NCBI GenBank assembly: GCA_050633305.1
Contig: JBOEGF010000032.1
Location: 64,001-128,000 of the forward strand
DNA: 64,000 nt
Reading direction: 5' to 3'
From: Nannocystales bacterium
Lineage (GTDB): Bacteria > Myxococcota_A > Polyangia > Nannocystales > Nannocystaceae
How positions within the stretch are numbered: position 1 is the first letter of the stretch; each line of letters begins with the position of its first letter. The notes under the pieces are model-generated. The model had not been told where the DNA came from. It did no database searches and saw nothing but the letters and a program-made list of their open reading frames with translations. Made by a program: the position numbers and the translations under genes. Below, in pieces: positions 14,437 through 29,459 of the stretch.

Positions 14437-15003
14437 TCAGCGACGGGCGCACTGGATGGCCCAGAAGATCCGTCCTGTCACCTCACCGGACTTGTGCTCG
14501 CCGCCCTGGACAAAGAACAAACCGTTGTCTTCGATGCTGTAGTCCATCGCGACGAGGTTCTTCTTGCCGTCGCGGTGGGTCAGATCCAGGTGCAGCTTGA
14601 GCTTCTTCTCGTCTCCACCGAGAAGGCTCAGCTTCATCTTGTGCCCGGTCTTGAACTCGGCTGCCGTGGCCTTGCTGACCTTGAGTTCGACCTTCTTGGA
14701 CCCCAGGAGGTGGAACGACTTGTAGCGGTCGTACGGCTCGTCCGTGAGCCACTCCTTCATGAACTCGAGGTTCTTGGGAATCTTACCGTCGCCCTCCTTG
14801 GAGGCGAGGACCGCGTGGACCTTGCAGACGGCTTTTTCGGCGTTGGTGCTGGCCTTCGGTTTGGCCTTCGGACTGGCCGGCTTCTTCGCCGGCGCCGCGT
14901 GGGCGCTCGTGGAAACCGAGGCGACTGCCGCGAGTGCAGCAGCAGGCACGAGGAGGGAGCTGAGGGCCAGGGAGAGCAAGCTCTTGGTGCGTCGGGGCTT
15001 CAT
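14437..15003 (-). CDS. Hypothetical secreted Lys-rich protein
   Basis: Signal peptide ending AHA; ATGA overlap with the anti-sigma gene. Confidence 0.7.
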   Translation of the reverse strand: MKPRRTKSLLSLALSSLLVPAAALAAVASVSTSAHAAPAKKPASPKAKPKASTNAEKAVCKVHAVLASKEGDGKIPKNLEFMKEWLTDEPYDRYKSFHLLGSKKVELKVSKATAAEFKTGHKMKLSLLGGDEKKLKLHLDLTHRDGKKNLVAMDYSIEDNGLFFVQGGEHKSGEVTGRIFWAIQCARR

Positions 15004-15740
15004 AGCGAACGCTCGGTGTCTTTGGGCTGGGCCTCTTCTTCGAGGTAGAGGACGGTGACGGTCCCGGTCTTGGAGATGCGGCCGGTGTGTCCCGAGAACT
15101 CGACCCCGTGAATCTCTGCCTCGACCTTCTTGGGGCTGGGCAGGTCATCCTCGGCACCCAGTGCAGGGTCCGGGTTGGGAAGATCTTGGGCGGCGGCCAT
15201 GCGTTCTCCGAGTGGGAGAGCCGAAGGAGCATCCTTCGTCTCGGCGCCCGGAGCGACAGCCGTGTCCGGCTCCTGATTCGCTGCGGGCTCCTGTGCAGAC
15301 GCGACAGCGCCGGGATTATTCTCGGCGTCCGGCCCTTTGTTGGGGTCCGGGTTCGGAGTCGACACCACCACCAGTGTCACAGCCGCGGCAGCCGCCGCCG
15401 CCGCGAGCGGGAGACGTGCCGGCCGGAGCGCAGTCCAGACTCTGGACCACAGCGAGCCCGCGGAAGACGGAGCCGCAGCAGCCGCCTCGCGGTCGAGCTG
15501 ACGGTCGATGTCATCCCAGATCTGCTCAAACCGGGCCTGCGGGATCTCTGCCGCCTTGGTTTTGAGCGTCTCTTGTACGAGACCGCGAACAATCCCCATC
15601 TGCGCGAGTTCATCGCGCAGGTCGGGATCGGCGTCGATCTGGGCGGCGAGCTCGTGGGCCTCGGCCCCGGTGCTTTCGCCGTCGAAGTGAAGCGCGAGTT
15701 CGTCACGCGACACGCCGGAGGTTCCAACTTGGTTGGTCAT
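15000..15740 (-). CDS. Putative anti-sigma factor (single TM)
   Basis: LALHFDGE...N-terminal anti-sigma-like helix, TM, periplasmic tail; coupled to the ECF sigma gene. Confidence 0.75.
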   Translation of the reverse strand: MTNQVGTSGVSRDELALHFDGESTGAEAHELAAQIDADPDLRDELAQMGIVRGLVQETLKTKAAEIPQARFEQIWDDIDRQLDREAAAAAPSSAGSLWSRVWTALRPARLPLAAAAAAAAVTLVVVSTPNPDPNKGPDAENNPGAVASAQEPAANQEPDTAVAPGAETKDAPSALPLGERMAAAQDLPNPDPALGAEDDLPSPKKVEAEIHGVEFSGHTGRISKTGTVTVLYLEEEAQPKDTERSL

Positions 15741-16456
15741 GATGCAGCCTCCTGTGAGACGGACCCGGATGCCCCGGTGTTCGATTTGGACTCAGGTTTA
15801 TTTCCGGCCTTCGCCTTTTTCGGTTTGGGACTCCCATCCGGGTCGTCCTCGGTCGTGCTCGGGACGTGCTCTAGGCGCGTCTTGAGCTGCTTTTGCATGT
15901 TCCGGCGGGCGTGGAACAGCCGGCTCATGATCGTGCCCTTGGAGCAGTTCATCGCCTTGGCCATGTCCGCATAGGAGAGGCCTTGCAGCTCGCGCATGAC
16001 GATCACCATCCGATGCTTCTCGCTGAGTTCGTCCAAGCTGTTCTCGACCGCATCGAGGATCTCCTTGTTGCGGACGGCCTTGGAGGGGTCCCCCAGCGTG
16101 GAGGCTGGAAGACGGTCGGACGATGCATCGGTCTCGCCGTCATGGCGCAGCTTGTCGTCGAACTCGACGTCCTTCTTGCGGCCGGCGCGCCGGAGGTGGT
16201 CGATGCAGAGGTTGGCGACGATTCGATACAGCCACGTGTAGAAGCTGGATTGACCCTCGAACTTCGGCAGGTAGCGGTGGACCTTGATGAAGGCCTCTTG
16301 GGTGACGTCCAGCGCATCTTCCTGGTTCCGGAGGAATCCATACGCAACGGCGTAGACCTTGCGCTCATAGCGCTTAAACAGGATCTGGAACGCACGACGA
16401 TCCCCACCCTTGCAGGCTTCGACCAGCTCGTGGTCGTCGGCTTCGTTGGAAACCAC
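15737..16456 (-). CDS. ECF RNA polymerase sigma factor (RpoE-like)
   Basis: DALDVTQEAFIK, FYTWLYRIVANLCID, region 4 GLSYADMA...KGTIMSRLFHAR. Confidence 0.93.
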   Translation of the reverse strand: MVSNEADDHELVEACKGGDRRAFQILFKRYERKVYAVAYGFLRNQEDALDVTQEAFIKVHRYLPKFEGQSSFYTWLYRIVANLCIDHLRRAGRKKDVEFDDKLRHDGETDASSDRLPASTLGDPSKAVRNKEILDAVENSLDELSEKHRMVIVMRELQGLSYADMAKAMNCSKGTIMSRLFHARRNMQKQLKTRLEHVPSTTEDDPDGSPKPKKAKAGNKPESKSNTGASGSVSQEAAS

Positions 16457-16641
16457 GTGTTGCTCGCGCTTCGACGGCCGGCGATGGGGACTATTCAGGG
16501 GCGAATGTCTGTCCCGTTAGAACCCGGCCCCGGAACGGGGCGGTGGGGTCGCGGCAGCCCGGCCAGTGACTGCGTGGCGAAGCGCGGTTATACCTTTCCT
16601 CGCCCCCCGCGCGCCAACCCCTGGCCAGCGCGAGGCGCAAT

Positions 16642-19600
16642 GTGGAGCTCCGCTTGGCTGTCCCGCCCTCGAATACCGTTGCGCCGCTGACGCGGTTTTT
16701 GGTCTCAGCGTCCCGCATCGCGGCTCTACGCACCGCTGGCGCGGGGCTGTTCGATGCCGCCCTGATCGCCTGTGCATGCGCGGGAGCCGGCGCTTGGCTC
16801 GCAGGATGGACACTTCGCGGCGACATCGTGGCCCCGGTCGCGCTCGGGGCGGCCAGCGTCAGCCTGCTCGTCTGGGTAGGGCGCCACGCACTCCATGCCT
16901 GGCGGGCCCACGGGCGCCCGATGCGAACCGCAGCTTCGATCGCCCGCCACCGTGGGCCGCTCGGCGAGGACGGTCCCGGGCACGTCGCGGCCGATCGGAG
17001 CCTCCGTCATGAAGTGATGGGGGCGATGGAGCTGGCCAGCGGCGCCGAGGTCCGCTCGCCCGATCTCGCCGCGGCCTACATCGACGACGTCGCGCGCCGC
17101 GTCCGCCAACCGAGAATCGACGCGGCCCTCGCCCTGCCCAGTCCGCGCTGGCGAGCCCGCGCCGCGGCTTCGATGCTCGTCGGGGCACTCGCGGTGTCCT
17201 GCGTGGTGGCCCCCACGGCCGTCGGTGGTCTGGCCCTGTTGCTCTCCGGTCACGACGGTCGCCCCCCTGCCCCTCCCGAGCCCGCGTGGTCATCGCTGAC
17301 CCTGGAGCTTCGGTATCCGGAGCACACGCGCCGGCCGCCTCGGGTCGTCCCCAACCCCAGCGGCGCCCTTCGAGTGGTCGCTGGAACCGAGGTCATGCTG
17401 ACTCTAGAAGCGTGGCGACCCGCAGCACAGGCCCGCGCGGTCCTCAACTACGACCCAAGCGCGGAGCTCGAGCACCCCGAGCCCGAGGTCGTTGAGCTCA
17501 CCGCCCTCCCCCCCGACCCCGACAACCCCGAGGCGAAACCTGGCCTCCGCTTCGAGGGCACCTTCGTCGCACGTGGCGCCGGCACATGGACCGTCGTCCT
17601 GCTCGACGAACCCGACGCCGAGGACGACGCCCGGCATTCGCCACCGATGCCGCTCGTGCTCGAAGACGACCGCGCTCCGGATGTCGAGCTGCTGCCGCTG
17701 CCCGCGGCACAGCGGGAAGTCAGCGAGCAACAGAGCGTCGATGTGCGCTTCGTCGCCCGGGATGATTTCGGCGTGGCCTCGGCGGAGCTCGTCTATCAGA
17801 TGCCCGACGGGACCACGCACCGACTCAGTGCGGGGACTCCAACCGCGTCCAACCGCGCCTGGCGACAACGCTACACCTGGGACCTCTCCTCGGTCCCCAT
17901 CGAGCAGCGCAGCGAGGTCCTGTACTGGGTCGAGGTCCGCGACAACGACCCGGGATTGGGCCTGATCGCCCTCGCCGACCCACCGGGAAAGATGACGCGC
18001 TCGGCCACAATGTCGCTGGTCGTCCAAGACGATGAAGCCGAGCACGCGGCCAACATCGTCAAGCTCGCGGAGCTCCGCGATCGCGCCGTGGACCTTCTGG
18101 CCGCCCGTATGACCACGCGGGCGTTCGAGGAGGCCCCAACCGACCCCGCGGGCTTCGAGATCCCGCTCCCTGTCCAAGCCGCCGGCGCTCGTGAGCTGCT
18201 GGGGGGCAGCGGACAGCTCCTGGCGATGCTCGCGCTGGCGATCGACTCACTCAGCGTCGACACGCTCACCCACGAGCGCGACGTCGCGATTCTGACCAAG
18301 GTTCATAAGCGCCTCAAGGGTCTGCACGACGAGGCGCTGAAGCTGCACGTCAAGATGCCGACCGGACTCGAACGGCGAGACCCCGATGCCACCGACGCGG
18401 CGCTCGACAAGCTCGGGAAACACAACGAAGAAGAAATCACCCAGCTCGAGGACGAGATCATCCGTATCGACGACCTCGTCGACGGTCAGGTCATCGAGCG
18501 GCTCGAAGCGCTGGTCGCCCGGCTCGAGGCAACACAGCGCAAACTCGTCGACCTGCTCGAGCAGCTCAAGGCCGGCGATTCGTCCGCACGCGCGCAGATC
18601 GAACAACTCGAGCAGCGGCGGAGGGACGACCTGCGCCGGATCGCCGAAGCGCGCGCCATGCTCCGCGAGGAGCTCGATCCCGAGTTCATGAACCTCGACG
18701 CATTCAAGGCGTTGGAGGACATGAAGAAGCAAGAGCAGCTCTCCGAGATGCTTCGCCAAGGCAAGACGGACGAGGCCCTCGAAGCCGCCAAGGGGCAGCT
18801 GGGCGAGGTTCAGCAGCTGCGCGATGCCGTCCAGGAGAAGCTCGGTCAGCCCCAGGGTGAAGCGCCTGCCCTCTCGGAGGAGGAGCGTCAGCGCATGGAG
18901 CTGCTGCGTGAACTCAGCCGACTGCAGGACGAGGAGTCGAGCGTTCGCTCCAAGACCCAGGAACTCGAAGAGGCCTACCGGTCCAAGGTCAAGTCACAGG
19001 CCGCGCAGGAGGATGACCGGAAGGATGCTGGTGCACAGGCGCAGGCGCTTCGAAAGTCGCTCGAGGAGATCAATGACGCCCGCCTGGGACGCGACGCCCG
19101 GCGCGGACTGGAAGATGCACGCGCGGCCCTCGAACGCCTCGAGGACACCGCTGAGCGCGAAGACGCGACGCAGCTGCAACTCGATGATGCGGCTCGGGCC
19201 GCCGCGGAGGGGTTGCAACGCGCGCAGGCGGGCTCCGAGACCACGGAGCGGGAGGGCAAGGCGCTGAAGAAGGCTGGGAAGAAGGCTCAGGCGCTGCGCA
19301 CCCAGACACGCAAGCCGCTCCCGGGCACGTCCGATGTCTTGGATGCGACCCAACAAGCCAAACTCGAGGAGCTCGAGGGCCGGCAAGAAGGACTGCGGAC
19401 GAGAGCCTCGACGCTGATGGAGTCGGACAACGCGAAGCTGCTCCCCAAGGAAGGCCGCGGCGCGATGCGAGACGCCGACGGCTCGATGGAGCGAAGCGCG
19501 GACGAGCTCGGCAAGGACGGAACAGAACGGGCTCTCCAAGCCCAGAACGGGGCCTGGAACGCGCTGCAGCGCGCGATTGACAGTCTCCGGGAAGGTCCCC

Positions 19601-19755
19601 CTCCGCCCCCTCCGCAGGGCGGTTCCCACGATGCCAGCACCGAGGCCGAACGCGACCGCAGCCTCCGGGACGCGCTCATGGAGGCGATGAAGGAGAAGTC
19701 GCCCGATGGATACGATGCGCCCGTGAAGCGTTACTACGAGGAGTTGCTCCGATGA
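16642..19755 (+). CDS. DUF4175-like membrane-anchored coiled-coil protein
   Basis: N-terminal TMs, Ig-like segment (ARDDFGV), long coiled coil, C-terminal VKRYYEELL. Confidence 0.75.
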   Translation: MELRLAVPPSNTVAPLTRFLVSASRIAALRTAGAGLFDAALIACACAGAGAWLAGWTLRGDIVAPVALGAASVSLLVWVGRHALHAWRAHGRPMRTAASIARHRGPLGEDGPGHVAADRSLRHEVMGAMELASGAEVRSPDLAAAYIDDVARRVRQPRIDAALALPSPRWRARAAASMLVGALAVSCVVAPTAVGGLALLLSGHDGRPPAPPEPAWSSLTLELRYPEHTRRPPRVVPNPSGALRVVAGTEVMLTLEAWRPAAQARAVLNYDPSAELEHPEPEVVELTALPPDPDNPEAKPGLRFEGTFVARGAGTWTVVLLDEPDAEDDARHSPPMPLVLEDDRAPDVELLPLPAAQREVSEQQSVDVRFVARDDFGVASAELVYQMPDGTTHRLSAGTPTASNRAWRQRYTWDLSSVPIEQRSEVLYWVEVRDNDPGLGLIALADPPGKMTRSATMSLVVQDDEAEHAANIVKLAELRDRAVDLLAARMTTRAFEEAPTDPAGFEIPLPVQAAGARELLGGSGQLLAMLALAIDSLSVDTLTHERDVAILTKVHKRLKGLHDEALKLHVKMPTGLERRDPDATDAALDKLGKHNEEEITQLEDEIIRIDDLVDGQVIERLEALVARLEATQRKLVDLLEQLKAGDSSARAQIEQLEQRRRDDLRRIAEARAMLREELDPEFMNLDAFKALEDMKKQEQLSEMLRQGKTDEALEAAKGQLGEVQQLRDAVQEKLGQPQGEAPALSEEERQRMELLRELSRLQDEESSVRSKTQELEEAYRSKVKSQAAQEDDRKDAGAQAQALRKSLEEINDARLGRDARRGLEDARAALERLEDTAEREDATQLQLDDAARAAAEGLQRAQAGSETTEREGKALKKAGKKAQALRTQTRKPLPGTSDVLDATQQAKLEELEGRQEGLRTRASTLMESDNAKLLPKEGRGAMRDADGSMERSADELGKDGTERALQAQNGAWNALQRAIDSLREGPPPPPPQGGSHDASTEAERDRSLRDALMEAMKEKSPDGYDAPVKRYYEELLR

Positions 19756-21413
19756 TCCGCGCACGAACGCTTCGCCCCCTTCGCTCGACGATCGCCGCAG
19801 GTCTCGTTGCCGCGCTCGCCGTCATGCCATCGTCGTCCGCGCACGCCACCGTCGGTCCGGCCGCAACCAGCCCAGCGCTGATCGCCGCGCAACCCCTGGC
19901 TCTGCTGGCCTCCGACGCGCTCGACGACGTCGACGCCGCCCTCCTCGCGTGGGACCTGCCTGCCGCACGTGCTGCGATGAAGCGAGCACCAGATACACCG
20001 CAGGCCAAGGTGAAGCGCGGCGTCGTCAAGCTGTATGAGGCCGAGTACACCGAGGCCGAAGCCTTGCTCGCAGAGGTCATCGCCGCGGGCACCCTGCCCG
20101 AGGGCAGCGCGGCGCTCGAGGAGGCCACACACTACCTGGGCTTGTCCCGCGGCGCCCAGACGGCGCTCGATCAGGCGATCGTCGTTCGAAGCGAAGATGG
20201 CAACTTTGAAGCGGTGTTCGCCAGCGATGAAGACGCGCTGTTGGCCCCCTACCTCTTCGACGCCATGAAGGACGCCCGAGAGCGCATCGGGGCGATCATC
20301 GGGGTCGTCCCCGCGCACACGGTCCGGTTCGAGTTCCTCGACTTGGCCACCAAGCTCGCCCTTGTCACCCCGCTCTCCGTCGAGAACATTCGGACCACCG
20401 GCACCGTCGGGGTGACCAAGTACCGCCGCGTCATGATGATCTCGCCGCGGATCATGGTGTACGGCTACGGATGGCTGGACACGGCAGTCCACGAGTACGT
20501 GCACTACGTACTAACAATGCGCACCGACAACCTCGCCCCGGTCTGGCTGCAAGAAGGCCTCGCCAAGCTGCTGGAGACACGATGGCGGCGGACCGATCCC
20601 GAGCCGTTGAGCCCCACCATCGCCTACCGGCTCCATCGGGCGATCGTTGACGATGACCTGGTGACGCTCTCCGAGATGTATCCCTCCGTCGCGATGCTTC
20701 CCAGCGCGGAACGGGCCGCCCTCGCCTACGCCGAGGTCGAAACGATGCTGGGCCTGCTTCACGAGCGTAAGGGCAACGAAGGGATTGCGCGGCTGCTCGA
20801 CAAAGTCGCTGCGGGTGAGGACGCCGAGGCAGCCTTGGCGCACGCGTGGGGAGACGACTTCGAAGCGTTCATGTCGGAGTGGAAGCGCGTCACCAAGGCG
20901 CGCACCGCCAGCGGGGAAGACGGCGAGCTGTCCACGCCCGAGTTCAAGGACGGCAAGCCTGCACCCGAGCAATTCGGAGACGTCTTCTCCGAGCTTGGCG
21001 GGGGCGTCGCCCGCCAGCACGCTCGTTTGGGCGCGCTGCTCCAGGCCCGCGACCACGACCACGCCGCCGCCGCACAGTACGAAAAGGCGCGCAAAGCCGA
21101 CAAGCGGGCCCGCAAGGACCCAACACTGGCGCGGCGACTGGGGCGTCTGTACGTCGACCTCGAGCGATTCGCGGAGGCGGTGCCGCTGTTGGACATCGCC
21201 GCCGCGCTCGACCCCGAGAACGCCAACCTCGCCGCTGCCCAGGGGCGGGCGAGACTTCGCAGCGGAGATCGGGATGGGGCGAGCGAGGCCCTGGACCGGG
21301 CCATCCGCAACAACCCATTCATCCCCACCCTGCACTGCGACCTTGCAGCGCTCGCGCCCACGGAAGCGCGGAAGCTGGCCGAGCAGAAGCTCTGCGATCC
21401 CAAGGCCCGCTGA
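19752..21413 (+). CDS. Secreted peptidase MA-family metalloprotease with TPR repeats
   Basis: Signal peptide; HEYVH...PVWLQEGLA gluzincin motif; TPR-like C-terminus; ATGA overlap. Confidence 0.85.
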   Translation: MIRARTLRPLRSTIAAGLVAALAVMPSSSAHATVGPAATSPALIAAQPLALLASDALDDVDAALLAWDLPAARAAMKRAPDTPQAKVKRGVVKLYEAEYTEAEALLAEVIAAGTLPEGSAALEEATHYLGLSRGAQTALDQAIVVRSEDGNFEAVFASDEDALLAPYLFDAMKDARERIGAIIGVVPAHTVRFEFLDLATKLALVTPLSVENIRTTGTVGVTKYRRVMMISPRIMVYGYGWLDTAVHEYVHYVLTMRTDNLAPVWLQEGLAKLLETRWRRTDPEPLSPTIAYRLHRAIVDDDLVTLSEMYPSVAMLPSAERAALAYAEVETMLGLLHERKGNEGIARLLDKVAAGEDAEAALAHAWGDDFEAFMSEWKRVTKARTASGEDGELSTPEFKDGKPAPEQFGDVFSELGGGVARQHARLGALLQARDHDHAAAAQYEKARKADKRARKDPTLARRLGRLYVDLERFAEAVPLLDIAAALDPENANLAAAQGRARLRSGDRDGASEALDRAIRNNPFIPTLHCDLAALAPTEARKLAEQKLCDPKAR

Positions 21414-21518: not shown

Positions 21519-22703
21519 CTAGGCGACGCCCACGGAACCGTGCGGGGAGTTCACCGCATCCAAGGTGGGGTCCGCACCTGAAACACGGCGCTTCTTCGCC
21601 GCGCGCTGGAAGGTGCCATCGATCTGGCGGAGCAGTCGCCGAAGGCTCTTGCACACGGGTGCCGCCTGCCGGACCAGCACCCCAACCTGAAAGCCGATCT
21701 CGGGGGGTCCGATCCGGTCGATGACCAGCCGGACAGTCCCGACCACGGCTTGAATCTCCCGCCCCGCATCCTCCGTCGGCTGAGCGTCGACGTCAAAGAA
21801 CACGTGCGCCAGTCGGCAAAGAGCTCGAGCCGCGAGGGCTTCGTCGACATCCGACGTGCAGCGACCGGTCACGACTTCGGCATGACGCAGTAAGAACGCG
21901 CCGAGCACGTCCGGTGTCTGGGAGAGGCGCGAGAGTTTCTCCACCACCTCGGGGTATGCGACCGCCACGACCTCCTCGACCGGCTCCGCGTTCCCCCCCG
22001 GGCGCGCCGTGAATCCACGCGCCAACAGACCCTCCCATCGACCCACGATCGTTCGGGCGCACCGGGTCTTGCCCGGCAGCCACGTGGCCTCAGCGTCCAG
22101 CCAACCGAGCATTCCGTGAACCGCCTGCGAGCCGACCAGCTCCCCTGCGGTGGCGTGGATCGGCTGTCCACCATCGAGGTAGATCGTTCCGAAGCGCTCC
22201 GGTCGGTTCGCCGTTTCCGCGCAACGCAGGTGTAGGGCGCCGTGGGCTCCCGCTGCGCAGTGCAGGGTCAACAGCATCGGCGTGGGCACACCGGTCGTCG
22301 TGCCCGAGAACCCCGCATCCGGAGCCGGCTGCCGGAGCAGCTCCTGAAGCTGCTTGGCGCCGAACGGACGTGCGAGCAGTCCGGCGGCACCAAGGTGGCA
22401 GGCGGTGGCGACCCGGTCGTCGTCCAACCGCTCGGCATAGGCGATGACCGGAAGACCAGGAAACCGCGTCTCGATCTCCGCCACGAGTTCGGTCGCAGCA
22501 TCCGACCCGAGGTCCAGGTTCACGACCACAGCGTCGAGCGCTCCTCCTGCCTCAAACACCGAGATGGCCGCCGCGACGCTTGGCACCACCTGGATTGCGA
22601 GCGGTTCGGGGAGCGCCGCGCCGTCCGCACGAAGGCCTTCTACGGACCCTGGGGAGGGGTCGACCAGCAGGATTGGGGTATGGGCGGAGCTGACGTCGTT
22701 CAT
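21519..22703 (-). CDS. Pseudo-receiver + DUF4388 (PATAN) + roadblock/LC7-like protein
   Basis: REC fold with phospho-Asp replaced (VVVNLDL); GTIYLDGGQPIHA...G..AV DUF4388 motif; C-terminal LSQTPDVLGAFLL roadblock-like segment. Confidence 0.7.
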   Translation of the reverse strand: MNDVSSAHTPILLVDPSPGSVEGLRADGAALPEPLAIQVVPSVAAAISVFEAGGALDAVVVNLDLGSDAATELVAEIETRFPGLPVIAYAERLDDDRVATACHLGAAGLLARPFGAKQLQELLRQPAPDAGFSGTTTGVPTPMLLTLHCAAGAHGALHLRCAETANRPERFGTIYLDGGQPIHATAGELVGSQAVHGMLGWLDAEATWLPGKTRCARTIVGRWEGLLARGFTARPGGNAEPVEEVVAVAYPEVVEKLSRLSQTPDVLGAFLLRHAEVVTGRCTSDVDEALAARALCRLAHVFFDVDAQPTEDAGREIQAVVGTVRLVIDRIGPPEIGFQVGVLVRQAAPVCKSLRRLLRQIDGTFQRAAKKRRVSGADPTLDAVNSPHGSVGVA

Positions 22704-22920: not shown

Positions 22921-24513
22921 GTGATTGCGGCCGATGATTCGATCCTTCCGGGGAGCTCCGTCCTTATCGTGGACGACCACGAGCCCCATCGGACGCTTTT
23001 GCAGAACTACCTGACCGCCGTCGGGTGCCAATGCATCGGCGCCGGCGGAGGAACCGAGGCGCTCGAGCAGCTGGGTAAACACGAGTTCGACATCGTGTTG
23101 TTGGACCTGCGCATGGATGACCTCGATGGCATGGAGGTTCTCAAGCGCGCTCGGGCGAAAGGACACACCGCGCCAACGATCATGATGTCCGCTGAGGGCA
23201 CGATCTCCCACGCGGTCGACGCCATTCGGCTCGGCGCGAAGGACTTCCTGGTCAAACCGTTCGAGCTCGAGCAGCTCCACGACACCGTGACCCGTGTCCT
23301 GGGGAGCGGGCGTGGTGGTGCGGCGTCCGGGCCCGACCCGCGAGCGTTGTGGCGAGATGCCCACGCCCCCGGCCTGATCGGGGACCACCCGAACCTGTTG
23401 GAGATATTCCTCGTCCTGGAGCGGATCTCAGGCACGGACTGCACGGTCCTGATCACCGGTGAGTCCGGCACGGGCAAGGAGCTCATCGCCCGGGCGATCC
23501 ACCACGCCTCGGGACGCGCGAAGAACCCCTTTGTCCCGGTCAACTGCGGGGCCATCCCGGAGACGCTCATCGAGAGCGAGCTGTTTGGGCACGCCAAAGG
23601 GGCGTTCTCGGGCGCGACCCAGGCCCGGGAGGGACGGTTTGCGGTGGCCGATGGAGGCACCTTGTTTCTCGACGAGATCGGGGAGATGTCCCTGTCGGTC
23701 CAGGTGAAGTTCCTGCGCGTCTTGCAGGAGCAGGAGTTCGTGCCCGTGGGGGAAACGCGACCGCGGAAGTGCGATGTCCGGATTCTGGCCGCCACGAACA
23801 AGGACCTCGAACAGATGTCCGCCGAGGGGTCCTTCCGCGAGGACCTGTTCTATCGACTGAACCTCATCCCGATCCACCTGCCGCCCCTGCGCGAGCGCTC
23901 GACCGACATCCCCTTGTTGGTCCGCTACTTCCTCGACCGTGATGCGCCCAAACGCCCCCGCCGCGTCGACGAGATCAGCGAGCGCGCGCTTTCGCTGATG
24001 GAGTCCTACCCCTGGCCTGGCAACGTCCGAGAGCTGGAAAACACCATCGAACGCATGGTGTTGCTGCACCAAGGCACCGGCACCCTCGACGTGGGCGACC
24101 TGCCGCCCAAGGTCCGCCAAGGGGCTGCGACCCCTCAGGCTCCGACCAGCCCTCCGGTGGCGGATCGCCCCACCCCGTCCGCGGCCCGCAGCGTGTTGTC
24201 CTTTCCGCTCTCCGCCCCCGCACCCGAGGCCCCGCCGCCGGCCGCCGCCCAAAGCGGCGAATACACCCTCGTACCCGACCCGTCCGAGTCCGTGGTGGCA
24301 CGCCGCGTCGCGACGACGCCGGATGGTTTCTTGCTCCCCGAGAAGGGCCTGAACCTCCGCGAAGCCGTGGAAGCGTTTGAGATGAGCCTGATCCAGCAGG
24401 CACTCGAACGCACGGGCGGCAACAAGAACCAAGCATCGATCCTCTTAGGCATGAACCGAACCACGCTGGTCGAGAAGCTCCGCAAGCGAAAACGAAAAGC
24501 TGGCGGTTCGTGA
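22921..24513 (+). CDS. Sigma54-dependent response regulator (REC-AAA-HTH), FleQ/FlrA-like
   Basis: REC with LLDLRMD Asp; GESGTGKE, GAFSGA, LFLDEIGEM, WPGNVRELEN; HTH LLGMNRTTLVEKL. Confidence 0.92.
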   Translation: MIAADDSILPGSSVLIVDDHEPHRTLLQNYLTAVGCQCIGAGGGTEALEQLGKHEFDIVLLDLRMDDLDGMEVLKRARAKGHTAPTIMMSAEGTISHAVDAIRLGAKDFLVKPFELEQLHDTVTRVLGSGRGGAASGPDPRALWRDAHAPGLIGDHPNLLEIFLVLERISGTDCTVLITGESGTGKELIARAIHHASGRAKNPFVPVNCGAIPETLIESELFGHAKGAFSGATQAREGRFAVADGGTLFLDEIGEMSLSVQVKFLRVLQEQEFVPVGETRPRKCDVRILAATNKDLEQMSAEGSFREDLFYRLNLIPIHLPPLRERSTDIPLLVRYFLDRDAPKRPRRVDEISERALSLMESYPWPGNVRELENTIERMVLLHQGTGTLDVGDLPPKVRQGAATPQAPTSPPVADRPTPSAARSVLSFPLSAPAPEAPPPAAAQSGEYTLVPDPSESVVARRVATTPDGFLLPEKGLNLREAVEAFEMSLIQQALERTGGNKNQASILLGMNRTTLVEKLRKRKRKAGGS

Positions 24514-24740
24514 CGGTCAGCGGGCTCCCGGCCGAGAACGGGACACAGGACCGCCGACCGCAACCGGCGCTTTGACGCTGCGGCAGTTCGCCGGCGTCCC
24601 TCCCCAGGGCCGCCGGTTTTCTCGTTCCGGCGCACGCGCAGGAGCACTGGTCCGGTCGGCGAGATCGGAGGCCACGGGTCGGGCCCGGAGTGCATGTGCG
24701 GCGGCCCGCGTGAGGGCCACCGTCGTTGGCTCTTGGGTCC

Positions 24741-24756
24741 TGGCCCACGGTTTGCA
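24741..24756 (+). promoter_or_regulatory. Sigma54 (-24/-12) promoter of flhG-fliA
   Basis: TGGCCCACGGTTTGCA, with exact GG-N10-GC spacing and TTGCA, 37 nt upstream of the flhG ATG. Confidence 0.75.
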
Positions 24757-24792
24757 CAAGCTGTGGGGTGCGGAACAACCCGCCCCCTCGCG

Positions 24793-25689
24793 ATGAGCCA
24801 AGAAGTCCCCCAGTCCGTCTCCGCGACACAAGACGCCCCCGTCATCCCACTGCATGGTCGGCCTCAGCCCGCCCAAGCACGGGTCGTGGCAATCGCTTCG
24901 GGTAAGGGCGGCGTCGGCAAAACCAACCTCGCCGCCAACTTTGCCCTCGCGCTCGGCCGCCTCGGCGCTCGGGTGCTGGCCGTCGATGCCGACCTTGGGC
25001 TCGCCAACCTCGACATCGTGTTGGGCCTCGCGCCCTCGCATACCTCGCTCGACATCCTCACTGGAGATGTCGACATCGAAGATGTCTTGGTCCCGGCCAA
25101 GAACGACGTCTGGCTGCTGCCCGGATCCCCGGGCAACTACGACGCGAGCAACATCGAGGAACTTCGGCGATACGAACTCATGACCGCGATCGACACCCTG
25201 GACTCCCGGTTCGACACGGTCGTCATCGACACGGGATCCGGGCTGGGTCCGGGGACTCTGGGCTTCTGTGCCGCCGCCGAAGAGGTGTTGCTGGTGATCA
25301 CCCCCGAACCGACTGGGCTTTCCGACGGGCTTGGCATGCTTCGAGCGCTGCAAGCGAAACACGGCGTGCAGCACGTGAAGGTCGTCGCGAACATGGTCGG
25401 CAGTCCCGCCGAAGGTGAAGTGGCGTTTGAGCAACTCCAGACCATGTGCAACAGGTCCCTGGACGTACGCCTCGAGTATCTCGGCGCCGTCCCCTACGAC
25501 CCCAACGTTGGACGCGCCATCATGCGGGGCCAGCCGACGAACGAGGCGTACCCCGACAGTCCTTTTTGCCAGGGCATCGCCCACGTTGCGGACACGTTCC
25601 TGGCATCGACCCAACGCGGAGCGCGACCGGGCGCCTCGCAGATCTTCTGGCGCAGACTGTTGCGCCAGCGAAACCACGGAGGCGAATGA
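24793..25689 (+). CDS. flhG: MinD/ParA-family ATPase FlhG/FleN
   Basis: ASGKGGVGKTN, DADLGLAN, TPEPT, C-terminal amphipathic FWRRLL; coupled to fliA. Confidence 0.88.
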   Translation: MSQEVPQSVSATQDAPVIPLHGRPQPAQARVVAIASGKGGVGKTNLAANFALALGRLGARVLAVDADLGLANLDIVLGLAPSHTSLDILTGDVDIEDVLVPAKNDVWLLPGSPGNYDASNIEELRRYELMTAIDTLDSRFDTVVIDTGSGLGPGTLGFCAAAEEVLLVITPEPTGLSDGLGMLRALQAKHGVQHVKVVANMVGSPAEGEVAFEQLQTMCNRSLDVRLEYLGAVPYDPNVGRAIMRGQPTNEAYPDSPFCQGIAHVADTFLASTQRGARPGASQIFWRRLLRQRNHGGE

Positions 25690-26519
25690 TGAGTGCAGCA
25701 GTCGAGAAACTGATCCCCCGTTCGAGCCAGCCTGCGAGCAATCCTGCCGCACAGGCGGCCAACACGGCACCTGCAGGCTTGCACCGGGTCGACGACGGCG
25801 CTGCGCCAGCCAACGAACGTCCGCCCGCGGTCGACCCCGCGCAGTACATGGAGTTCGTCCGTCGGCTCGCCCGCCGCCTCGCCCGCAATCTCCCCAGTCA
25901 CGTCTCGTTCGACGACCTGGTCGGCGCGGGCATGCTTGGGCTGATCGATGCCAGTCGCCGCTTCGATCCGTCCAAGTCCGACCGCTTCGAGACCTTCGCC
26001 GAGTTCCGGGTCAAAGGCGCGATCCTCGACGAGTTGCGTCGCTACGATCTGATGGCCCGCAACGCGCGACTCGCGACGAAGCGGATCGCCCGGAAAACCC
26101 AAGAACTGACCGCCAAGCTCGGCCGGCCTCCCGTCGAGGAAGAGCTCGCGGCAGGCCTTGGCATGACCGTCGGGGACTACCGAGAACTCGTCGCGCGCGT
26201 AGGCAGCGTACGGATGCTCAGCCTCGACGAGATGAGTCGCAACGACGACGACGGGGGCCGCGGCATGGAGCTTCCGTCTCCGAGCCCCCGACCCGACGAG
26301 CTGAGCATGAAGCGGGAGATGGTCCGGCGGCTCGGTCGTGCCATCGGGAACCTTCCGCCGCGGAAACAGCGCGTGCTCGAGATGTACTATCAGCGGGAGA
26401 TGACGCTGCGCGAGATCGGGCTGGAGCTTGGGGTCACGGAATCCCGAATCTGTCAGATCATGGGCGAGGCCACGGCGAAGCTGCGCACCATGCTCCGCTC
26501 CGACAGTTCACCGCGCTGA
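25686..26519 (+). CDS. fliA: FliA/WhiG family sigma factor (sigma28)
   Basis: LPSHVSFDDLVGAGMLGLIDA, FETFAEFRVKGAILDELR, TLREIGLELGVTESRICQI. Confidence 0.9.
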   Translation: MMSAAVEKLIPRSSQPASNPAAQAANTAPAGLHRVDDGAAPANERPPAVDPAQYMEFVRRLARRLARNLPSHVSFDDLVGAGMLGLIDASRRFDPSKSDRFETFAEFRVKGAILDELRRYDLMARNARLATKRIARKTQELTAKLGRPPVEEELAAGLGMTVGDYRELVARVGSVRMLSLDEMSRNDDDGGRGMELPSPSPRPDELSMKREMVRRLGRAIGNLPPRKQRVLEMYYQREMTLREIGLELGVTESRICQIMGEATAKLRTMLRSDSSPR

Positions 26520-26553
26520 GACCTGCGCGACGGAGCGATGTCACAGTCAAACG

Positions 26554-26573
26554 CGGCCTTCGGGCCGTTTTTT
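26554..26573 (+). terminator. Intrinsic terminator after fliA
   Basis: CGGCC-TTCG-GGCCG (cUUCGg tetraloop) followed by TTTTTT. Confidence 0.8.
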
Positions 26574-26794
26574 CAATGCGCATTTCCCGACTACCGCATC
26601 GAGCCTGTGTCATACTTGTGGAACCACTCCCTCCCACGACCCGTCCGGCCCCGTTCAACTGCGGGACTTCATCCGGCGACGATGGGATACGGCGATGGCG
26701 CCGGCCTGAAAAGGTCGCGAGAACCGACGGACCTGAACCAAGATGAGCAAACGGGAGAAGCCGAATCCTTCGACCGACCCCTCGGGAGACGCAA

Positions 26795-27040
26795 ATGCTG
26801 ACACTCACGCGGAAGATCGGACAGAAGATACTCATCGGCAACGGAATCGAGATCGTCGTCCGGGAGGTCCGGGGACGGCAGGTCCGGCTGGGAATCTCGG
26901 CGCCGGCGGGACTGCCGGTGTACCGGGAGGAGCTGTACCAGGGCATCGCGGACGAGAACATCAAGGCGTCGAAGACGCCGACTCCGGACGAGCTGTCGCG
27001 CCTCTTCGCGCAGTGGAAAGTACTCGCTTCGGGCGAATAG
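26795..27040 (+). CDS. csrA: Carbon storage regulator CsrA (long C-terminal, FliW-type)
   Basis: MLTLTRKIGQKILIG...QVRLGISAP...VYREELY; R44 and N55 present; GGGAG RBS. Confidence 0.95.
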   Translation: MLTLTRKIGQKILIGNGIEIVVREVRGRQVRLGISAPAGLPVYREELYQGIADENIKASKTPTPDELSRLFAQWKVLASGE

Positions 27041-27450
27041 AAGTTCCGCAGGCGCAGCTCATCACACTCCCGATGGGCTTGCCCGGCTTCCCGGAAGCCA
27101 AGACGTTCGTCCTCATCGACGGACACAGCGACAACCCGTTCCGATGGCTTCAGGCCTTCGAACGGCCCGACCTCGCGCTGATCGTCATCGATCCGCTCGA
27201 AGTCGCGCCCGACTTCCCGCTCGACCTCGTCCGGCGCTCGGCGTCTTTCGCTGGGATCGATCCTGACGAGGACCTGGTCGTGCTCGTCGTCTGCACGGTC
27301 GCGCAAACCGAAGAGCCCACCGCAAACTTCCTCTCGCCGATCGGCATTGGGAAACGATCGCGGCTCGGAGCGCAGGTCGTCGTCCACGAATCCGGCTTTG
27401 GCTCGCAGGAGAGATTTCTTCACCTGCTCGCAGCCCCAGACCGCGCGTAG
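27013..27450 (+). CDS. fliW: Flagellar assembly factor / CsrA antagonist FliW
   Basis: STRFGRIEV, GLPGFPE, PFRWLQA, TANFLSPI; GTG start overlapping the csrA end (start approximate). Confidence 0.88.
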   Translation: MESTRFGRIEVPQAQLITLPMGLPGFPEAKTFVLIDGHSDNPFRWLQAFERPDLALIVIDPLEVAPDFPLDLVRRSASFAGIDPDEDLVVLVVCTVAQTEEPTANFLSPIGIGKRSRLGAQVVVHESGFGSQERFLHLLAAPDRA

Positions 27451-27845: not shown

Positions 27846-27861
27846 TGGCACGCTTCGAGCA
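27846..27861 (+). promoter_or_regulatory. Putative sigma54 promoter of the HATPase-like/DGC operon
   Basis: TGGCACGCTTCGAGCA: perfect -24 TGGCACG and correctly spaced GC; -12 is GAGC rather than TTGC. Confidence 0.6.
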
Positions 27862-27898: not shown

Positions 27899-28498
27899 AT
27901 GCATCTCGTAACTACTCCCTCCGTCACCACTCCCGTCCGCGTCCTTCCCTTCAACGGTGCTTGTCGAGGTGAATCCGCGAACGACTCTGGATTGATGACA
28001 CCGCAGACCCGTACCCATCAGGTGAACATGCTCGTCGCCGGGTTGGTCGGTCGGGTCGCGGCTCGTGTGCAGTCCAAGAGCGTCAACATCGCCCTACGGC
28101 TTGCGCCCGGCGACCCGGCGGTGACGACCGACCCCGGCGAGCTCTCCTTCGTCATCGGAGCCGTCCTGGGTGCTGCCCTGCGGATCGTCGAAGAGGAGCG
28201 CGGTGAATACGTGGGAGTGCATGTCTCCGCGGCCCGCTCGAAGGTTCGTATCTCGATCACGACCGACGGCGTCCCACCGCTGCGCTTCGTTCGAGCACTC
28301 GACCCCCGTGGCACCAGCGGCGATGTCGACCCCACCCTCGCCCACTGCCGCCGGCTCGTCGAAGCACGCGGCGGTGCGTTGGTGCTGACCGAAGAAGATG
28401 GACGCCTCGGCTTCGCACTCGAGCTTCCCCGCGCCGTCCTCTCCCCCGGAATCCGACTCGTCCCCGGGCTCGCCGAATCTGTCCGCGAAGCTGCGTGA
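27899..28498 (+). CDS. Degenerate histidine-kinase-like ATPase (HATPase_c fold) without DHp
   Basis: GAGGA RBS; TDPGELSFVIGAVLGAA (N box without Asn), TDGVP, CRRLVEARGG...FALELP. Confidence 0.65.
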   Translation: MHLVTTPSVTTPVRVLPFNGACRGESANDSGLMTPQTRTHQVNMLVAGLVGRVAARVQSKSVNIALRLAPGDPAVTTDPGELSFVIGAVLGAALRIVEEERGEYVGVHVSAARSKVRISITTDGVPPLRFVRALDPRGTSGDVDPTLAHCRRLVEARGGALVLTEEDGRLGFALELPRAVLSPGIRLVPGLAESVREAA

Positions 28499-28505
28499 AC
28501 GAACC

Positions 28506-29459
28506 GTGATCCCTCCAAGCGCCAACGGACCGCCGGCGCACGTCCTACTCGTCGATGACGAGCCGGTCGTCGCGCGAGAGCTGCGTGACCTCGTCCAGTC
28601 CTACGGCCATCGAGTGACGGCCTGCAACAGTTGGACCGAGGCCTTACGCGCCTTCGGAAAAGGAGACGTCGACCTCATCTTGATGGACGCCGTCATGCCC
28701 ACCGTTGACGGCTTCAAGCTCACCCGGATCATCCGGTCCCGAGCGAAGACCTACGTCCCCATCGTTTTTCTCACCGGCCTCGCCGACGACAAGGCGCGCG
28801 CCAACGGTATCGAAGCGGGCGGCGATGATTTCCTGACCAAGCCGATCGATCCGCTCGAGCTGCAGGTCCGCATCAAAGCGATGCTTCGGATCCGCTCGCT
28901 GACAAAGGCCCTCGAAGAGAAGTCGCGCACCCTGAGCCGACTTGTCGCGATGGATGCGTTGACGGGGATCGGAAACCGTCGGTCGTTTGACGAGCGAATG
29001 CAGACCGAACTGGGCGAGACGAGTGCTTCGAACGAATCGGTGTCGGTTCTGCTTCTCGACCTCGACCACTTCAAGTCGGTCAACGACACCTTTGGTCACA
29101 CGGTCGGTGACGACCTCCTTCGTGTGTTCGGTCGACTCCTCGCAGACAACACCCGCGCTCGTGACCTTCCGTATCGATACGGAGGAGAAGAGTTCGCGGT
29201 CGTCTGTCCCAGCTCGACGACCGATGACGCGTGCACCCTCGCGGAGCGCATTCGAGCCGCGTTCATGCGGATCAGTCCGCACGCGACTGCCGCAGGGGCC
29301 CGCACGTGTTCGATTGGCGTCGCGGGAACCGACATCTTGCCCGGAGCGACCAAGGAGGTCCTGCTGCAAGCCGCCGATGCGGCGCTGTACCGGGCCAAGG
29401 ACTCAGGGCGCAACTGCGTCTGTAAGTTCGACCCGATGTTCGACCAGAAGGTCGCCTAG
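28506..29459 (+). CDS. Response-regulator diguanylate cyclase (REC-GGDEF)
   Basis: REC ILMDAVMP; DALTGIGNRR, DLDHFKSVNDTFGH, RARD I-site, YGGEEF. Confidence 0.93.
   Translation: MIPPSANGPPAHVLLVDDEPVVARELRDLVQSYGHRVTACNSWTEALRAFGKGDVDLILMDAVMPTVDGFKLTRIIRSRAKTYVPIVFLTGLADDKARANGIEAGGDDFLTKPIDPLELQVRIKAMLRIRSLTKALEEKSRTLSRLVAMDALTGIGNRRSFDERMQTELGETSASNESVSVLLLDLDHFKSVNDTFGHTVGDDLLRVFGRLLADNTRARDLPYRYGGEEFAVVCPSSTTDDACTLAERIRAAFMRISPHATAAGARTCSIGVAGTDILPGATKEVLLQAADAALYRAKDSGRNCVCKFDPMFDQKVA

Follow-up and report, generated by a model that had tools for sequence, protein, structure and literature searches.

The 64,000-nucleotide window analyzed here (G000:C32:64001-128000, that is, positions 64,001 to 128,000 of contig C32 of the Nannocystales bacterium genome G000; all positions below are window coordinates) carries five consecutive plus-strand genes, encoding a sigma54 enhancer-binding protein (EBP), an FlhG-type ATPase, FliA, CsrA and FliW. 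Gene order and phylogenetic trees showed that this island is the ancestral flagellar locus of the family, here called Fla-A, after three deletions (flgB-flhF, flgF-flgL and maf-fliC-fliS). We consider it rather probable that the remnant has been kept for a flagellum-independent job, which it would perform as a set of parallel units, and that a second system, Fla-B, is the working flagellum. A preliminary description of the window, which had read the island as an ancestral operon pruned to its regulators, was borne out on this point, but its headline of a flagellum-free organism fails because a complete flagellar gene set lies elsewhere in the genome.

Genes of the Island

The open reading frame (ORF) listing and family scans confirmed that the five genes are intact and stand in a row. 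The genes of the island and its borders are:

21519-22703, minus strand: divergent receiver-domain protein at the edge of the ancestral locus (family scan, synteny)
22921(22912)-24513, plus strand: sigma54 EBP with receiver, AAA+ domain with GAFSGA loop and Fis helix-turn-helix
24793-25689, plus strand: FlhG (MinD/FlhG-type ATPase), Fla-A ortholog, with P-loop, DAD and C-terminal FWRRLL helix retained
25686-26519, plus strand: FliA, Fla-A ortholog, exceeding the TIGR02479 and PRK06986 cut-offs
26795-27040, plus strand: csrA, above the Pfam cut-off and slightly below that of NCBIfam (71.2 vs 73)
27013-27450, plus strand: FliW domain (family scan)
27899-28498, plus strand: histidine-kinase-ATPase-like protein, weak ZraS match (E=5e-4), no recognized Pfam domain
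28398-29459, plus strand: receiver-GGDEF diguanylate cyclase, GGEEF and RxxD intact

The N-terminal domain of the EBP is a canonical phospho-receiver (Pfam Response_reg match with the DD, D and K positions), and the Pfam scan gave no match to the FleQ domain. The protein is a sigma54 activator, as first described, but by domain comparison the label "FleQ/FlrA-like" holds by position only. FlhG was assigned by its deviant Walker A motif, DxD, C-terminal amphipathic helix and position before fliA; it passes no NCBIfam cut-off, and no flhF adjoins it. Island FliA scored 227.8 against the TIGR02479 cut-off of 189.6 and has regions 2, 3 and 4. CsrA and FliW domains were both recognized by the family scans. 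Structural flagellar genes are absent from the 64-kb window, as had been stated: tblastn with the Fla-B set and the Fla-A set of G015 matched only the island and its flanks.

The Island Is a Remnant of the Ancestral Fla-A Locus

Within the family set (f1, 72 genomes), FliW was found in 31 genomes, FliA in 27, Flagellin_N in 25 and CsrA in 62. In the genera g10, g8, g6 and g5 the flanking genes of the island enclose a full cluster (Fla-A), ordered peptidase-MA, receiver protein, EBP, TPR, flgB...flhF, flhG, fliA, flgF...flgL, csrA, fliW, maf, several fliC, fliD, fliS, ATPase-like gene and GGDEF. The left edge was observed in G015, G081 and G013 and the right edge in G015, G011, G010 and G013, with the GGDEF gene seen in G015 and G011; the EBP is inverted in G015. 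The island EBP is the ortholog of the activator preceding the Fla-A operon and shares 60-67% identity with the flgB-adjacent EBP of G013, G015 and G081; identity to the Fla-A proteins is 46-54% for FlhG, 64% for FliA, 71-81% for CsrA and 46-53% for FliW. The FlhG and FliA copies on contig C15 of the same genome share 32-37% identity with those of the island (FliA 32-34%). In the trees, island FliA clustered with Fla-A (Shimodaira-Hasegawa-like approximate likelihood ratio test, SH-aLRT, 99) and a clade with Fla-B was rejected by the approximately unbiased (AU) test (p-AU 0.0023); island FlhG likewise clustered with Fla-A (SH-aLRT 98; clade with Fla-B rejected, p-AU 0.0092), its placement being unresolved in the mixture-model tree, and the long-branch FlhG-like row of G030 was excluded from the later FlhG tree. 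The identification of the island as the ancestral Fla-A locus follows from these trees together with the synteny with flagellated Nannocystaceae.

The missing flgM, which had been counted as part of the pruning, was found in none of the four Fla-A genomes tested (G015, G013, G011 and G081), although FliA is present in them; its absence from the island is therefore probably ancestral. Other remnants occupy the same spot in related genomes: EBP-csrA-fliW in 4 of 5 fetched loci of genus g15, EBP-ATPase-GGDEF in G012, the EBP alone in G018, G064 and G008, csrA alone in one locus each of g17, g14, g4 and g2, and nothing in G017.

Several side observations concern this locus. Flagellin_N is present in 11/11 g10 genomes, and the csrA genes of the family lie mostly at an emptied flagellar locus. 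In the Fla-A clusters of G015, G013, G011 and G081, flgJ (rod-binding plus M23) abuts flgN. In G012 (71% complete; flagellin and fliW not found) a Fla-A-type fliA has been relocated from the locus (L060:2783-3649). The left flank of the island (14437-21413) is a conserved block with an extracytoplasmic function sigma factor and its probable anti-sigma factor, a 1037-aa protein without family match and the peptidase-MA/TPR protein, the last being present in 68/72 family genomes.

A Second Flagellar System of Another Lineage in the Same Genome

Gene calling and family scans revealed a complete flagellar cluster (Fla-B) at G000:C15:198525-237482, so the structural genes are not missing from the organism. 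The cluster contains motAB twice, flgB-L, fliE-R, flhB, flhA, flhF, flhG, fliA, flgM, two flagellins, fliD, fliS and a receiver-less EBP (fliJ, fliK, flgJ and flgN were assigned by position only). In the genome-wide profile search Flagellin_N matched four places in G000, including a third flagellin on contig C16, and FHIPEP yielded a full FlhA on C15; FlgM was located only in Fla-B. A second FHIPEP gene on C5 was excluded as flagellar FlhA by the cut-off; this stand-alone SctV/FlhA-like gene (L030:12670-14568) adjoins a Ser/Thr kinase gene and occurs also in G003, G004, G005 and G012. Contamination was rejected as the source of the C15 cluster, which lies mid-contig on 265 kb, has a GC content of 65.5% vs 66.7% and has orthologs in G001, G002 and G006.

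In a FlgG/H/I/K tree Fla-B grouped with G030 and G333 (support 100) and G033 (99), all members of other families, separately from Fla-A. The best outside FlgI match to Fla-B among 401 phylum genomes came from G030 (60%, vs at most 52% for others), and a donor pattern scan returned just Nannocystaceae, their unnamed relatives and Armatimonadia matches of 41-43%. By gene content and phylogeny, Fla-B was thus shown to be a self-sufficient system, unrelated to Fla-A and belonging to another lineage. It is present in four of the seven genus genomes (G000, G001, G002 and G006), which form a clade in a one-gene tree (SH-aLRT 92), and in G014. Orphan Fla-B-type flagellins occur outside clusters at L029:9930-10763 (G000 C16) and L048:9506-10336 (G004), in differing neighborhoods.

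Retention and Selection in Sister Genomes without Detectable Flagella

The island is also kept in three sister genomes, G003 (84% complete), G004 (90%, 40 contigs) and G005 (72%), in which no match was obtained for flagellar FlhA, FlgI or the rod/hook domain Flg_bbr_C and in which rpoN is present. Thus a flagellum-less carrier, which G000 is not, was found in G003 and G005 and, except for one flagellin, in G004, as far as the incomplete assemblies allow. For EBP, flhG, fliA and the fliW domain, the ratio of nonsynonymous to synonymous substitution rates (dN/dS; pairwise Nei-Gojobori, six pairs) was 0.016-0.237; the comparison of G003 with G005 gave 0.016-0.072. Relaxed selection was therefore not seen. 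For EBP, fliA and fliW the values are at or under those of the flanking genes, at dS near 0.4-1.4. The csrA gene, being probably dual-coded, was left out; CsrA protein identity is 88-94%. These comparisons indicate that the remnant is functional, in some lineages apparently without flagella. Because purifying selection persists in sisters without detectable flagella, a non-flagellar job is likely. The redeployment proposed in the preliminary description is supported to this extent, by sequence comparison.

Promoters and Other Non-Coding Elements

The following non-coding elements were recognized:

24572-24585, plus strand: element containing TTGAC, present in 6/6 genus genomes at 167-201 nt before the sigma54 site
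24741-24756, plus strand: sigma54 -24/-12 site P1, before flhG
26553-26576, plus strand: terminator-like hairpin (26553-26568) and T run, weakly conserved
26606-26616, plus strand: TGTGTCATACT, extended -10-like element, invariant in 5/5 aligned genus genomes
27846-27861, plus strand: P2, another sigma54-like site, upstream of the genes for the ATPase-like and GGDEF proteins

P1 is the only sigma54 match that the window yields, against a chance expectation of 1.25, and is by itself not significant. It is kept, about 50-90 nt upstream of flhG, in 6/6 aligned genus genomes; the sigma54 promoter first described stands as a site. In 3/3 Fla-A loci the EBP is followed by a sigma54 site ahead of the operon's first gene, and comparison of the loci suggests that P1 is probably this ancestral promoter behind the EBP, brought next to flhG by the first deletion. 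The TTGAC-containing element, a candidate activator binding site, was not found by pattern at the Fla-A, Fla-B, g15 or P2 promoters.

The gap between fliA and csrA measures 275 bp and contains the terminator-like hairpin, as had been noted for the place of flgF-flgL. The hairpin is, however, evident in 3/5 aligned genomes, and the terminator scan gave 3 sites in the window vs 3.7 in shuffles, which is chance level. The same gap holds TGTGTCATACT, which resembles the sigma70 extended -10 consensus and is a candidate sigma70 promoter for fliW/csrA.

P2 is kept in 7/7 genus genomes and in G012. No such site was found before the ATPase-like gene, which follows fliS in Fla-A loci, in 4/4 of these loci; P2 looks like the sigma54 site belonging to the first flagellin of Fla-A. 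The GGEEF motif of the receiver-GGDEF protein is kept in 9 of the 10 orthologs listed, and this diguanylate cyclase is a candidate output of the circuit. A pattern search of the 20-30 kb part of the window gave no sigma28-type site.

Most Fla-A flagellin 5' regions (L038, L043, L044 and L046) share a hairpin, GGGCA..GCCC, some 60 nt upstream, and the same leaders have TCCACGAAGGAA at the ribosome site, which may be a CsrA-linked RNA element.

The csrA Gene Is Probably Nested within an Extended fliW Frame

An upstream ATG at 26743, 52 nt before csrA, opens a frame which runs through the entire csrA gene into the FliW domain:

26743-27450, plus strand: long fliW ORF of 235 codons, with about 85 residues, predicted to be disordered, overprinting csrA in the -1 frame, followed by the FliW domain

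The long frame is open in 24/24 assessable Fla-A-type loci of six genera, with ATG (22 loci) or GTG (2) as start at -52 to -73; G001 and G043, at contig ends, were not assessable. The strongest argument is that in 17/17 non-genus loci the fliW frame is devoid of ATG, GTG and TTG within csrA as well as at the FliW domain; the genus loci have one such start only, a GTG at +218, a conserved hydrophobic strand position. Outside the family an ordinary fliW start was present in 32/33 loci. In the AlphaFold model the predicted local distance difference test score (pLDDT) is <50 for most of FliW residues 1-83 and the first strand spans residues 88-93, so the N-terminal extension is predicted to be disordered. 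Among 24 csrA-only controls none has an ATG at -52 to -73 and four have GTG/TTG there, the range having been chosen after seeing the data and the upstream sequence of one control being masked. The open frame distinguishes nested loci from controls with Fisher p=2e-4, for rows that are not independent. Synonymous shuffling, from which G083 was dropped (csrA stop with compensating indels), gave a genus-mean chance of an open frame of 0.08-0.55 (product over six genera about 5.5e-4), and T occupies 0/177 stop-forming third positions of nested loci vs 81/869 elsewhere. These comparisons suggest that fliW probably starts at 26743 instead of 27013.

Several observations weigh against this start. Of the 24 csrA-only controls, 13 likewise have a -1 frame free of stops across 60 codons, and the controls are also T-depleted at stop-forming sites (14/203 vs 109/812, p=0.011). 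The synonymous/nonsynonymous changes in the leader do not clearly single out the ATG frame (8/12 vs 1/13 and 6/8 in the other frames in g10; 4/9 vs 2/9 and 3/7 in g1), the Shine-Dalgarno sequence of the upstream ATG is weak in most genera, and gene callers and databases give the short FliW form of 141-143 aa. It is possible, though unlikely, that the upstream ATG is incidental and that FliW arises either through a -1 ribosomal frameshift out of csrA, which would yield a CsrA-FliW fusion, or by initiation at a non-standard codon. Four other families of the class do have natural single-frame CsrA-FliW fusions, 190-218 aa long (L121 in G435, L112 in G460, L023 in G036, L113 in G139 and L122 in G269), and these, like the GTG at +218 in G000-type loci, would fit this mode. 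A frameshift, however, would need neither an open frame over the 5' half of csrA nor an upstream start, and all 24 loci have both; no obvious slippery heptamer was seen by eye. As for the non-standard start, codon +218 encodes differing residues across genera, and the first strand of the model begins three residues before it.

In 16/18 non-genus loci the csrA ribosome site folds into a short hairpin whose loop contains GGA, a feature that is weaker in the genus; csrA leader folding was no better than that of shuffles (z 0.39, 0.83 and -0.15). FliW of g15 starts from an ATG of its own and lacks the N-terminal hairpin. The fliW of G038 (L014) is possibly nested too, since it has an ATG at -22 and lacks a start at the domain, and the extra csrA-fliW paralogs in g10 (L155 and L156; G078 and G082) are not nested.

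Proposed Function of the Remnant and Alternatives

Parallel units are the most likely organization of the remnant. In the first, phosphorylated EBP and sigma54 would drive flhG-fliA from P1, with FlhG acting as a brake on the EBP in the manner of Pseudomonas FleN. In the second, the same EBP would act at P2, once a flagellin promoter, on the ATPase-like gene and the diguanylate cyclase, and the old motility signal would thereby now make cyclic di-GMP (c-di-GMP). In the third, the sigma70-like promoter would produce a fliW/csrA mRNA on which translation of FliW would begin at the ATG lying 52 nt before csrA and proceed, in the -1 frame, across all of csrA; CsrA bound to its own GGA/Shine-Dalgarno site would block initiation of csrA, not of fliW, and the single mRNA would tie the inhibitor FliW to its target CsrA. 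Tentatively, and at slightly less than an even balance, the whole can be drawn as follows: the genus would have lost its ancestral flagellum and kept a sigma54/sigma28/CsrA circuit with an ex-flagellin promoter on a diguanylate cyclase, part of the genus would carry a foreign replacement flagellum, and csrA would be nested family-wide in an extended fliW, silencing itself but sparing its inhibitor.

Some findings count against a flagellum-independent set of units under this EBP. Further sigma54 activators are encoded in G000, and P1 and P2 may therefore answer to another EBP. The target promoter of island FliA was not found, and a Gibbs search over 33 flagellin upstream regions gave no consistent Fla-A sigma28 motif. 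The non-flagellated sisters are incomplete (72-90%), and one orphan flagellin, which shares 85% identity with Fla-B FliC and has a sigma28-like promoter, is kept in G004, so that either gain or loss of Fla-B may have occurred in the genus. FlhG has the top dN/dS of the island in 6/6 pairs and has lost a conserved Asn in G003 and G004. Finally, CsrA and FliW may have a flagellar role in G000 itself.

The last point leads to the strongest of the remaining alternatives, which we regard as unlikely but which is compatible with the explanation preferred here in the flagellated genus members: the remnant could serve Fla-B in trans, CsrA and FliW controlling translation of the Fla-B flagellins and FlhG or FliA cross-regulating. 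The island holds the sole full csrA and the sole fliW of G000, and Fla-B has neither between flgL and fliC; 1, 0 and 2 GGA motifs lie within the 60 nt directly preceding the three flagellin genes of G000; and G004 retains its orphan Fla-B-type flagellin, as in Clostridioides difficile clade 5 (PMC11898703). Against this, purifying selection is equal in G003-G005, where apart from the G004 orphan no flagellin was found, and FliW was not found in the Fla-B relatives G030 and G033, nor in six f19 genomes. Fla-B moreover owns its EBP, FlhG, FliA and FlgM, its flagellins are preceded by sigma28-type sites (TAAA-N15-RYCGAW), and the two FliAs differ in the promoter-reading regions 2.4 and 4.2.

The single linear cascade of the preliminary description, in which EBP and sigma54 would act through FliA, or through read-through, on CsrA-FliW with a non-flagellar output, is doubtful and appears less likely still. 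The genus has kept both the gene order and P1, and the terminator is not clearly conserved, so read-through could occur; but the sigma70-like element in the fliA-csrA gap is invariant, the 20-30 kb region lacks a sigma28-type pattern, and csrA persists at the locus without fliA in five genera (g15, g17, g2, g4 and g14). That the island is a functionless, decaying remnant of a lost flagellum is very improbable and, on the comparisons made here, largely refuted by dN/dS: the locus is more reduced in other genera and flhG evolves fastest, but all frames are intact, EBP, fliA and fliW evolve no faster than their neighbors, and non-coding sites are conserved. An origin by duplication of the C15 flhG-fliA pair, with which it shares order and overlap, is refuted by the AU tests, and the copies are 32-37% identical vs 46-64% to Fla-A.

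Relation to Known Systems and Significance

In Pseudomonas, the sigma54 activator FleQ works with the FlhG-family antiactivator FleN and also governs non-flagellar, c-di-GMP-linked genes. The island likewise pairs a sigma54 activator with an FlhG-family protein, here by genes alone, but unlike FleQ its EBP has a canonical phospho-receiver and not the FleQ domain.

C. difficile clade 5 retained fliC-fliW-csrA after flagellar loss, with non-motility outputs (PMC11898703); as there, flagellar structure was lost and the FliW/CsrA regulators were kept at the island, but the island also keeps a sigma54 activator, FlhG and FliA, holds no flagellin, and in four of seven genus genomes is accompanied by a second, foreign flagellum. 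In the Hag-FliW-CsrA system of Bacillus subtilis, overlap and translational coupling set the FliW:CsrA stoichiometry (PMC6529632). Both arrangements have overlapping frames, with the fliW start (here the probable one) preceding csrA, but the B. subtilis fliW ends at the csrA start whereas here the FliW domain lies downstream and its frame would cross all of csrA; by analogy, the nesting may do a similar stoichiometric job. Geobacter sulfurreducens has the order csrA then fliW after flgKL, as here, in flgJKLMN-csrA-fliW, and its FliW-CsrA pair regulates biofilm (PMC13407953); that pair sits within an intact flagellar operon, and the accessible text does not mention nesting. Flagellar assembly genes have already been reported in uncultured Myxococcota metagenome-assembled genomes (10.1101/2021.07.06.451402), a report which in its accessible part covers other orders and families, without two systems or pruned loci. 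A literature search, most subscription papers being outside its reach, gave no description of the locus, of the flagellar swap or of a nested csrA. Retention of FliW-CsrA after flagellar loss is thus already known, and the nesting is the unexpected feature here.

At one locus the family offers a natural dismantling series, from the full cluster through sets of five and of three regulators to single genes (csrA or the activator) and finally nothing. This makes testable the role of flagellar regulators in gliding myxobacteria, as well as the question whether a horizontally replaced flagellum can operate beside old control parts. If true, the full-length nesting of csrA over six genera would be a clear case of bacterial overprinting with an obvious regulatory logic, and fliW would be mis-annotated in these genomes.

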